A stretch of 64,000 bases of DNA from a virus (Duplodnaviria > Caudoviricetes): positions 26,968-90,967 of the IMG/VR virus record IMGVR_UViG_3300025708_000007; one strand, written 5' to 3'. Below the pieces are notes generated by a model, which had not been told where the DNA came from, searched no databases, and was given only the letters and a program-made list of their open reading frames with translations. Positions 46,324-47,942 of this stretch are shown here, piece by piece. The translations under genes were made by a program, and so were the position numbers. How positions within the stretch are numbered: position 1 is the stretch's first letter; every line of letters starts with the position of its first letter.

Positions 46324-46398
46324 GATTCTGTGGCAGAGTGGTTATCGCACAAGTCTCTAAAACTTGCAAAATCGTGGGTTCGAATCCCACCAGAATCA
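46324..46398 (+). tRNA. Amber suppressor tRNA (anticodon CTA)
   Basis: CAAGT CT CTA AA ACTTG; perfect acceptor GATTCTG / CAGAATC; T arm. Confidence 0.88.
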
Positions 46399-46424
46399 CA
46401 AAATAAATTCATATTAATAACAAA

Positions 46425-47099
46425 ATGACTGAAGCTAATCTCAAAAAAGCGATAGATAACATTAAGTTGATTATTTTAAAATTAAAGTATCATGTTGACT
46501 TTTATGATGAAATTATTTCATTATCCGAAGAAGAATTAAATTTGATACAAGGATATAGAGACATTCAATTATTATATGAAGACTTCTATCAATTAATTAT
46601 TGTCGATATTCATAAAATTTATCCACGTGCAAGAAGGAGTGGTAATGACAAATATTGTATGAGAAAAATATATGATTATATCATTGATAATTATGATGAA
46701 TTATATGCTTTAGCCACACATCCATTACCAAAAAAATCAAAGCAAGAATTTGTATTTTTATTAAATGAAATAACACAATTTATAAATAGTGATGAAATTG
46801 ATACGATTATTAAATATAGAAATAATATTTCGGCACACATTAATGTCGAATTTAGGAATCTGCGTTTAAATCCAATTAACATTAACACAATAAAAAATAT
46901 TACCGAAAAAACGATTAAATTTATCGATGAAGTTACATTATTTATTGATGGTTCTTCCACTCACTATATGGGAGAAAATAATCGCAACATAATATCAAAT
47001 AGAATAAAAATACATAAAATTTGGTTATTATTACGTGAATCTAACATCAATCAAACTAATGTTGATACGGAAAAACTTTTAAAAATACTTCGAAATTAA
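46425..47099 (+). CDS. HEPN (AbiU2-like) domain protein
   Basis: All-helical, AT-rich; RNNISAH fits the Rx4-6H motif. Confidence 0.55.
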   Translation: MTEANLKKAIDNIKLIILKLKYHVDFYDEIISLSEEELNLIQGYRDIQLLYEDFYQLIIVDIHKIYPRARRSGNDKYCMRKIYDYIIDNYDELYALATHPLPKKSKQEFVFLLNEITQFINSDEIDTIIKYRNNISAHINVEFRNLRLNPININTIKNITEKTIKFIDEVTLFIDGSSTHYMGENNRNIISNRIKIHKIWLLLRESNINQTNVDTEKLLKILRN

Positions 47100-47153
47100 A
47101 TTGGTAGAATAAAATTTTTGTGTATATTTGTAACATTAAACAAAATTTTGGTT

Positions 47154-47591
47154 ATGAAAAACATCGTGGTATTATTGACAATATTATTTATCACTCTTAA
47201 TTCATTTGGACAATCACCAATTAAATTTGTGGCAAATGAAAAGTCATCAATTATATTGGGAGACACTTGGGATTACGAATTCACTTCATTAAAAACTCCA
47301 ATTAGTGTAAATTTCGATGGTAAAGTTTTGAAATTAACATACACTGATGGTAAAGAATGGGGAAGTTACGATATAATAAGTTTCGAAAAAAAAGAAAATA
47401 CAAGTGACGGAGAAGTAGATAAGGAAACATATATTTTACTCACAAAGTACAGAAATTATTATCAATATATTATCATTGAAAAAGATTTTAAGATACGTAA
47501 GCTTGATAATGGCATAATATATACAATAAAGATACCATTTTTATCTAAAATCAGCGAAACAATTAGTTATGAAATATTTCGACAATTCTAA
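47154..47591 (+). CDS. Secreted hypothetical protein
   Basis: Signal peptide MKNIVVLLTILFITLNSFGQ. Confidence 0.6.
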   Translation: MKNIVVLLTILFITLNSFGQSPIKFVANEKSSIILGDTWDYEFTSLKTPISVNFDGKVLKLTYTDGKEWGSYDIISFEKKENTSDGEVDKETYILLTKYRNYYQYIIIEKDFKIRKLDNGIIYTIKIPFLSKISETISYEIFRQF

Positions 47592-47615
47592 GTATTTATT
47601 AAAAAACAAAGTACA

Positions 47616-47942
47616 ATGAAGTAGGTAAAATTAGTAACCGTAACTCGCAAAGATATCTCTCCGGGATATCAACTCGTCCAGTCAGGGCATGCAATTGCTG
47701 AATTTGCACAGCAATTTCCTGACAAATTTGCTGAATGGAAAGAGCAATCCAATTATTTAATATCGTTATCAACCGATAACGAAGAATCCCTCAAAGACCT
47801 TTATAATAAATTGCAGTACTATGGTGCTGACGTTATTGCTTTTTATGAGCCTGACGTTCAGAACCAGATGACTGCTTTTTGTTTTTATGGTACGCCTGAA
47901 ATGCAATTGCATACAAAAAAATTAGATTTAGCACTTCAATAA
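47616..47942 (+). CDS. Pth2-like peptidyl-tRNA hydrolase with an in-frame TAG at codon 3
   Basis: MK*VKLVTVTRKDISPGYQLVQSGHA...FYEPD..NQMTA; absent from the ORF track because of the TAG. Confidence 0.75.

Follow-up and report, generated by a model that had tools for sequence, protein, structure and literature searches.

We have analyzed a 64,000-nucleotide stretch of phage DNA (Duplodnaviria; Caudoviricetes; positions 26,968 to 90,967 of IMG/VR record IMGVR_UViG_3300025708_000007), hereafter called the window, in which the gene for a Pth2-like protein carries an in-frame TAG (amber) codon near its start and lies downstream of a transfer RNA (tRNA) gene with the anticodon CUA. The window makes up the right-hand 64 kb of a virus contig of 90,967 bp with a G+C content of 33.5%. 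Fifty tRNA genes and a transfer-messenger RNA (tmRNA) gene were found in it with ARAGORN, and it is therefore a piece of a very large phage genome. The elements of the locus, numbered from the first nucleotide of the window, are as follows.

46324-46399, + strand: tRNA with anticodon CUA, of the amber suppressor type (ARAGORN; Rfam RF00005, 58.7 bits)
47591-47599, + strand: promoter-like motif AGTATTTAT, 25 nucleotides (nt) before the leader ATG
47616-47624, + strand: leader ATG AAG TAG, read from the sequence, with the amber codon at 47622-47624
47625-47942, + strand: Pth2-like body of 105 codons followed by TAA
3179, 13806, 38890, 47591, 47975 and 63456 on the + strand, and 46272, 27050 and 3157 on the - strand: example sites of the promoter-like motif

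The reading frame that opens at 47616 begins ATG AAG TAG GTA AAA TTA and then stays open to the TAA at 47940-47942, as a first-pass annotation made from the sequence alone had described. The codon directly after the TAG is GTA, and the first in-frame ATG, GTG or TTG beyond it is a TTG at 47811, from which a product of 43 residues, lacking 62 of the 105, would result. Since beta-strand 1 of the AlphaFold2 model begins with residue 2 past the TAG, a downstream start in the window cannot yield a folded protein. The leader ATG has the promoter-like motif AGTATTTAT ahead of it. This nonamer has 22 copies in the window where 1.5 would be expected, a ~15-fold excess, and stands 22-33 nt (mostly 23-27) ahead of the ATG of 18 long open reading frames (ORFs) of the contig; the spacing is exactly 25 nt both at ATG 47616 and at ATG 48000, the start of an HNH gene. 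The motif is probably this phage's promoter or a very short leader signal, and its position 25 nt upstream marks the leader ATG as a real start at which ribosomes should load.

The tRNA gene scores well above the gathering score of the Rfam tRNA model (29). It is of class I, has the discriminator A73 and does not encode its CCA. It is the last of the window's tRNA genes and lies ~1.2 kb upstream of the leader ATG on the same strand, in agreement with the first reading of this region. Its closest paralogue in the contig is a tRNA-Lys(CUU) at 28278-28352, with 74% identity, whereas in the related phage genome G002 the nearest paralogue is a tRNA-Phe, and the amino acid carried by the suppressor is not inferable from this comparison. 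The idea that the tRNA is initiator-like and that UAG itself serves as the initiation codon was considered and rejected: the tRNA has a G1-C72 pair, its anticodon stem is without the three G-C pairs, and an upstream in-frame ATG is kept in all 59 of the distinct loci described below.

Conservation of the leader amber codon and its linkage to tRNA(CUA)

More than 120 loci of this gene family were gathered by tblastn against phage records, by scanning IMG/VR and metagenome contigs, and from homologues listed in databases. Conservation was counted over the loci that have their N-terminus on the contig, namely 113, or 59 distinct loci at <90% identity; the homologues of Klebsiella phage RaK2 and of the Lak phage were kept outside this tally. 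All 113 loci have an in-frame ATG, 0-20 codons, a TAG and then the same ORF. The leader stop is never TAA or TGA, an uninterrupted start occurs in none of them, and the TAG keeps its place at the head of the gene down to ~30% protein identity. No amber-headed Pth2-like gene ends in TAG.

Measured from the ATG to the codon before the TAG, the leader is 1 to about 21 codons long, with ATG-NNN-TAG in 31 of the 59 distinct loci and ATG-TAG in two. For the case without read-through, the leader had initially been regarded as a Met-Lys minigene, a kind of ORF known to cause peptidyl-tRNA drop-off. Because leader length is variable, and in the ATG-TAG loci no peptide would be made, what is conserved at the locus is not a bar-like minigene, and this part of the first-pass annotation is speculative.

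A single in-frame stop at codon 3 could also mark a pseudogene, or an error of assembly or sequencing. Five near-identical contigs (L114-L118; 87-99% identity) from other metagenome assemblies all read ATG AAG TAG GTA, however, which excludes a sequencing error, and database homologues that begin 'MKQVKL...' reproduce that translation only if TAG is read as Gln. The TAG is present in every one of the 113 loci, none of the close homologues shows a sense codon at that position, and the body of the gene is under clear purifying selection, as indicated by residues that are invariant in 34 sequences (G14, H22, W38, E75, D77 and T83). The comparative data refute this explanation, and we consider its probability negligible.

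The carriers include huge phages of the Bacteroidota type, the huge phages LR745206 and LR756500-LR756504 (462-735 kb), and cultured phages, namely the Bxz1-type mycobacteriophages and mycobacteriophage Myrna, Yersinia phage fHe-Yen9-04, Erwinia phage pEa_SNUABM_44, Acinetobacter phage ME3, Salmonella phage Arash, Ralstonia phage RsoM2USA, Tenacibaculum phage pT24 and Xanthomonas phage XacN1. In two phages of this set a second in-frame TAG lies inside the conserved domain (LR756501 [L095, at about 688.1 kb] and L165), and two tRNA(CUA) genes are found 2.4 kb from the doubly interrupted gene of LR756501, in which the second TAG must be decoded. These extra codons hint that TAG use is spreading in those phages. 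In XacN1, the sequence ATG AAG TAG stands in frame five codons before the annotated ATG of ORF364, which encodes an HD-like and a Pth2-like domain.

Two homologues have a normal start. That of RaK2 begins with a plain ATG, and that of the Lak phage, whose genome is TAG-recoded anyway, is without the TAG and has an ordinary long N-terminus (Prevotella phage Lak-B4). A tRNA with the anticodon UUA, of the ochre type, lies 0.6 kb upstream of the Lak-B4 homologue (L094:841-913), and a tRNA(CUA) is present elsewhere in that genome (L105).

The early TAG is likely the cause of missing or shortened annotation of this gene in GenBank. The gene is unannotated in the records of fHe-Yen9-04 (L098; NC_042116 289115-289450), pEa_SNUABM_44 and RsoM2USA, and it is annotated with too late a start as ME3_195, as Arash gp84c (50 aa) and as BPT24_235 of pT24 (the six loci are L098, L100, L199, L198, L201 and L200).

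CUA is the commonest anticodon among the 155 tRNAs that lie within 3 kb of these genes, with 29 occurrences against 12 for the next anticodon, and all 29 are on the strand of the gene. These genomes have 50-60 tRNAs, about one of which is a tRNA(CUA). At the default threshold, 28 of 114 loci have a flanking tRNA(CUA), and 10 more have one at a relaxed threshold; many of the contigs are short. Two relatives, G001 (97% complete) and G002 (complete), are without a neighboring tRNA(CUA) but have one elsewhere in the genome, while in LR745206 only an odd tRNA-like CUA element was found, at the relaxed threshold.

Leader TAG and tRNA(CUA) co-vary in the cultured phages. A tRNA(CUA) is present in every cultured lineage with the leader TAG (IkeLoa, Myrna, fHe-Yen9-04, pEa_SNUABM_44, ME3, Arash, RsoM2USA, pT24 and XacN1), and none was detected in RaK2, the homologue of which has a plain ATG. 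The two genes are 130-250 nt apart in the mycobacteriophages, and the gap is larger in ME3 (0.4 kb), Arash (1 kb), pT24 (2.6 kb), fHe-Yen9-04 (3.3 kb) and RsoM2USA (13 kb); the copies of XacN1 lie within its terminal repeats. The pairing spans phages of three bacterial phyla, namely Bacteroidota, Proteobacteria and Actinobacteria. Two of the tRNAs, in Myrna (gene 86; L099:2963-3034) and in Arash (L201:2510-2584), are recorded as tRNA-Ser and tRNA-Phe, respectively; ARAGORN gives the anticodon CUA for both.

Several relatives have, at their loci, a family of tRNA-like genes of ~81 nt with a CUA anticodon and an unusual cloverleaf, missed both by ARAGORN with default settings and by the Rfam search. 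The acceptor stem has 8 bp, the linker 8 nt, the D-like stem 5 bp and the T stem 4 bp; the anticodon loop has 9 nt (or 7 nt with a mismatched closing pair), and compensatory changes occur at 14 of the 22 pairs. Several copies are directly upstream of the amber-headed gene. The copies are:

L024:2766-2846
L025:1968-2047
L027:632-712
L031:2870-2950
L030:1790-1869
L087:7340-7420 (LR745206 507340-507420)

The Pth2-like protein and the genetic code of its carriers

The read-through product matches the Pfam PTH2 family (PF01981) at 23.2 bits against a cut-off of 23, a marginal score, over profile positions 2-75 of 115, and the same match is found in many of its database homologues. It also matches phrog_1866 with an E value of 2e-13, the match starting from the ATG. 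A profile of 34 family members matches Pth2 of M. jannaschii (2zv3) over its full length with an E value of 2.8e-8. An AlphaFold2 model of the protein was obtained with a mean predicted local distance difference test (pLDDT) of 96.7 and a predicted template modeling score (pTM) of 0.89. The best structural neighbors found with Foldseek are archaeal Pth2 and human Bit1 (2zv3, 3erj and 1q7s; template modeling [TM] scores of 0.79-0.83), and the top 12 matches are all Pth2 or Bit1 (TMq 0.74-0.83, probability 1.00). The Pth2-type assignment of the 105 codons, which had been proposed from short motifs, has thus been borne out by Pfam, the profile and the predicted fold.

With archaeal and eukaryotic Pth2 (PF01981; 2zv3, 3erj and 1q7s) the family shares the fold, at a TM score of about 0.8, and at aligned positions it conserves a Thr, an acidic residue and, within the N-terminal motif, R, G, Q and H. 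In the alignment to 2zv3, the His and Gln of that motif are retained and the Asp position corresponds to the invariant E75. In S. solfataricus Pth2, the catalytic residues are reportedly a Lys after the conserved Gly and the Asp of a DAG motif. The phage family differs from Pth2 in its low identity (19-25%), in a Pfam score at threshold, in having a Tyr or a variable residue in place of that Lys, in E-P-D replacing DAG, in its viral host range and in the fusion to an HD-like domain in some phages. The product of 47616-47942 has a Pth2 fold, predicted with high confidence, and probably acts as a hydrolase on acylated tRNA 3' ends, and a Pth2-like hydrolase of tRNA-linked esters is the furthest that this evidence goes.

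Some phages encode the Pth2-like domain as part of a larger protein, joined to an HD-like domain of ~190 residues that has weak Pfam HD matches and a motif of the type H..HD..K. The Pth2-like part comes first in two lineages (Pth2-HD) and second in XacN1 (HD-Pth2). The fusions suggest that both domains act together on tRNA ends. In the contig, tblastn gave no match to the HD-like partner domain. The fusions are:

L014:2983-3894 (same sequence in L033)
L200:1144-2091 (Tenacibaculum phage pT24)
L196:673-1512 (XacN1 ORF364)

One homologue, P0011 (JGI 3300046504, L113:4001-4342), is annotated at its source as 'CRISPR/Cas system-associated endoribonuclease Cas2', which is probably a mislabel arising from a similar small alpha/beta fold.

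An in-frame TAG would be unremarkable in a phage of the general TAG-recoded ('code 15') kind, such as Lak, if the other amber codons were in late genes outside the 91-kb fragment. The contig is indeed a partial genome, its relatives fall in the huge-phage group that includes the TAG-recoded Lak phages, and LR756501 and L165 have the extra internal TAG. Nevertheless, the contig and two relatives analyzed whole use TAG as an ordinary stop. It terminates 18 of 120 tiled genes (15%) of the contig and 8.5% of the tiled genes both in G002 (363 kb, complete, with direct terminal repeats) and in LR745206 (635 kb), and ORFs tiled under code 11 cover 89-94% of the contig and G002. Recoding was assessed by stop-to-stop ORF statistics, same-frame ORF pairs, gap tiling, a leader-stop scan and a codon-usage score applied to open frames lying behind a stop and having no start codon. 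With TAG taken as sense, the gaps, split ORFs and leader-stop ORFs accounted for in the contig and G002 were no more numerous than with the TAA and TGA controls. Beyond the Pth2-like gene, the contig has no other clean amber-interrupted gene and no second amber-headed leader; the codon-usage score raised two TAG candidates (positions 26443 and 10013 of the contig), both of them antisense frames of low complexity. Random recoding is also not expected to keep a TAG at the head of one gene across such divergent proteins, and the Lak homologue itself has no TAG. General recoding is thus very unlikely, and the standard-code use of TAG first noted for this genome holds across the contig.

Possible routes of translation past the leader amber codon

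We propose that the full-length protein probably requires read-through of the UAG by the phage suppressor tRNA. Translation would begin at ATG 47616 and reach the UAG at codon 3. With host release factor RF1 acting alone, the product would be the dipeptide Met-Lys; once the phage tRNA(CUA) is made and charged and competes with RF1, the UAG would be decoded and a 108-residue protein would follow. Read-through is the simplest account because the stop is always TAG, the ATG is always in frame, there is no usable downstream start here, and the tRNA(CUA) is linked and co-varies. The tRNA and the amber-headed gene would then form a conserved lock-and-key pair in large standard-code phages. From this we infer a functional tRNA, and enzyme synthesis that is tied to the moment or degree of UAG suppression. 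A programmed read-through gated by the phage suppressor tRNA was the central proposal of the first-pass annotation, and comparison between phages speaks strongly for it on both counts that could be compared, the conserved TAG and the linked tRNA(CUA); its alternative, gating by the availability of RF1, is speculative.

The surroundings of the TAG were examined for sequence context and RNA structure in 41 loci. Position +4, directly after the TAG, is a purine in all 41, and position +5 is T in 39. A purine after UAG favors amber suppression in E. coli. No convincing read-through-stimulating RNA structure was found in the 60 nt past the TAG (mean z of -1.1 against mononucleotide shuffles), and the 60 nt centered on the TAG gave a mean z of 0.2. 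A further route considered was hopping, in which the ribosome would pass from the final codon of the leader to a matching one downstream. By eye it fits few loci (AAG to AAA in the window; ACA to ACA in L002), and it was rejected because most loci do not fit, for example the ATG-TAG of L021.

A number of observations weigh against read-through, and the first of them favor its main rival. In 56 of the 59 distinct loci the post-TAG codon is of the form RUN (ATT, GTA, GTT, ATA or GTG), which would suit a weak start compatible with the initiator tRNA; these codons, with their T at +5, all form pairs at their first two positions with the anticodon of the initiator tRNA. In mycobacteriophages IkeLoa and Myrna the post-TAG codon is a GTG that lies 7 nt after GAAGG or GGAGG and is the annotated start, and with so well-spaced a Shine-Dalgarno sequence the protein of these phages may arise without read-through. 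Further, TAG ends many genes, so a strong suppressor would extend many proteins of phage and host, and no special back-up stops follow the terminal TAGs. The suppressor tRNAs of different phages fail to align as one orthologous family. In the protein, the position of the Pth2 Lys is a Tyr and is variable across the family, and hydrolase activity is consequently not assured. Finally, the case for read-through has comparison, together with a predicted fold, as its basis.

In the rival explanation, for which the AUU start of infC is the model, ATG-x-TAG would be a separate regulatory mini-ORF, the protein would be started or restarted at the weak RUN codon after the TAG, and the tRNA(CUA) would serve some other purpose. 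The post-TAG codon of the window, GTA, and the AAC, ACA and AAT found elsewhere are not known starts, and no locus has drifted to ATG, though ATT is one change away from it. A restart also leaves unexplained why all 113 loci use TAG as the leader stop, to the exclusion of TAA and TGA, why CUA is the commonest anticodon among the neighboring tRNAs, and why LR756501 has an internal TAG. We therefore regard restart as unlikely and retain read-through as the favored route.

Under read-through, UAG suppression in these phages is probably weak or brief, as TAG still ends many of their genes. A possible reason for gating this gene in particular is that suppression would yield aberrant products or blocked tRNAs, which the enzyme would clear; read-through products, non-stop stalls and blocked tRNAs should all be created by suppression, and the phage also has a tmRNA. 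The tmRNA lies at 18155-18528 of the window, within the same tRNA-rich region, and has a predicted tag of 27 residues. A tmRNA, a tRNA(CUA) and a Pth2-like gene are likewise combined in cluster C mycobacteriophages and in XacN1.

These elements can be joined, tentatively, into a single loop in which the head amber codon would be the sensor and the Pth2-like enzyme (Pth2-HD in some phages) the effector. The output of enzyme would report the level of UAG read-through, that is, of charged suppressor tRNA against RF1, and the enzyme would have as its substrate either the suppressor tRNA or tRNA-linked products of suppression. In this way the phage might adjust how far or when the genetic code changes, partially and transiently, while its genome stays unrecoded, and these genes would be the clients of the 'orphan' suppressor tRNAs of standard-code jumbo phages. 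Taken as a whole, this loop is speculative and we hold its full form to be doubtful.

Related systems and neighboring genes

Stop-codon read-through driven by suppressor tRNAs is a known kind of system in phages, to which an amber-headed Pth2-like client would be a new addition. Phages that read TAG as Gln ('code 15'; Lak, crAss-like and others) and have their own suppressor tRNAs were described by Borges et al. (bioRxiv 10.1101/2021.08.26.457843), who also noted standard-code relatives with suppressor tRNAs and mentioned no hydrolase. As in those phages, a phage tRNA(CUA) would override the host's UAG stop, and an in-frame TAG has been proposed to delay or gate particular genes. Unlike in those phages, the code here is standard, TAG ends 8.5-15% of genes, and one small gene has its amber codon at the very start; the many TAG-interrupted genes and the low code-11 density of code-15 phages were not seen in the contig or G002. 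The arrangement also spans phages of Bacteroidota, Proteobacteria and Actinobacteria.

In the standard-code genome of the jumbo phage XacN1, tRNA(CUA) genes have been reported and no target gene was found by the authors (PMC5852040), who looked only past terminal ambers. With ATG AAG TAG in frame before it, ORF364 is a candidate target of these suppressor tRNAs, though an ordinary ATG also follows the TAG. Full-text literature searches turned up no account of a Pth2-like gene headed by an amber codon, nor of such a gene paired with suppressor tRNAs of phages.

Autoregulatory recoding is known from prfB, with its in-frame UGA and +1 frameshift, and from infC, with its AUU start. As in these genes, a function in translation quality would be combined with a deliberately poor decoding signal near the start, so that output reports the state of translation. 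Unlike in prfB and infC, there is no frameshift, the same frame continues, and the key would be a separate, dedicated tRNA gene. The bar-type minigenes of phage lambda are ORFs of two or three codons that are toxic when Pth is limiting, and ATG-NNN-stop is the size class with the most peptidyl-tRNA drop-off. An ATG-NNN-stop leader stands before a Pth-like gene in the window and in 31 of 59 distinct relatives. Unlike a bar minigene, the leader varies in length across the family, invariably has TAG as its stop and in every case leads into an ORF in the same frame, so that it does not stand alone as a minigene would.

Suppressor tRNAs are common in large standard-code phages, and their targets are an open question. 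A small amber-headed gene with a matching tRNA next to it, conserved across phyla, is a concrete candidate for such a target and, if it works as proposed, would be a minimal, naturally occurring switch of translation that a tRNA operates. The proposal is directly testable in cultured phages on laboratory hosts, such as the Bxz1-type mycobacteriophages (M. smegmatis), ME3, fHe-Yen9-04 and Arash. As a practical matter, standard annotation misses or shortens the gene in several GenBank records.

The remaining genes around the locus are given for context only:

45572-46246, - strand: HNH homing-endonuclease-like gene (Pfam HNH, phrog_10822), flanking the tRNA(CUA)
46425-47099, + strand: HEPN/AbiU2-like gene of 224 aa (Pfam PF18734, 27.1 bits against a cut-off of 26.8)
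47154-47591, + strand: small gene with a hydrophobic N-terminus, from the ORF list
48000-48788, + strand: NUMOD4/HNH homing-endonuclease-like gene (Pfam NUMOD4 and HNH_3, phrog_59), downstream of the Pth2-like gene

The small gene at 47154-47591 has no match in Pfam or PHROG. HEPN proteins of the AbiU2 type are normally a bacterial abortive-infection family; here, in a phage, such a gene is placed between the suppressor tRNA and the Pth2-like gene, and it is noted as a neighbor, with no membership in a common module implied.

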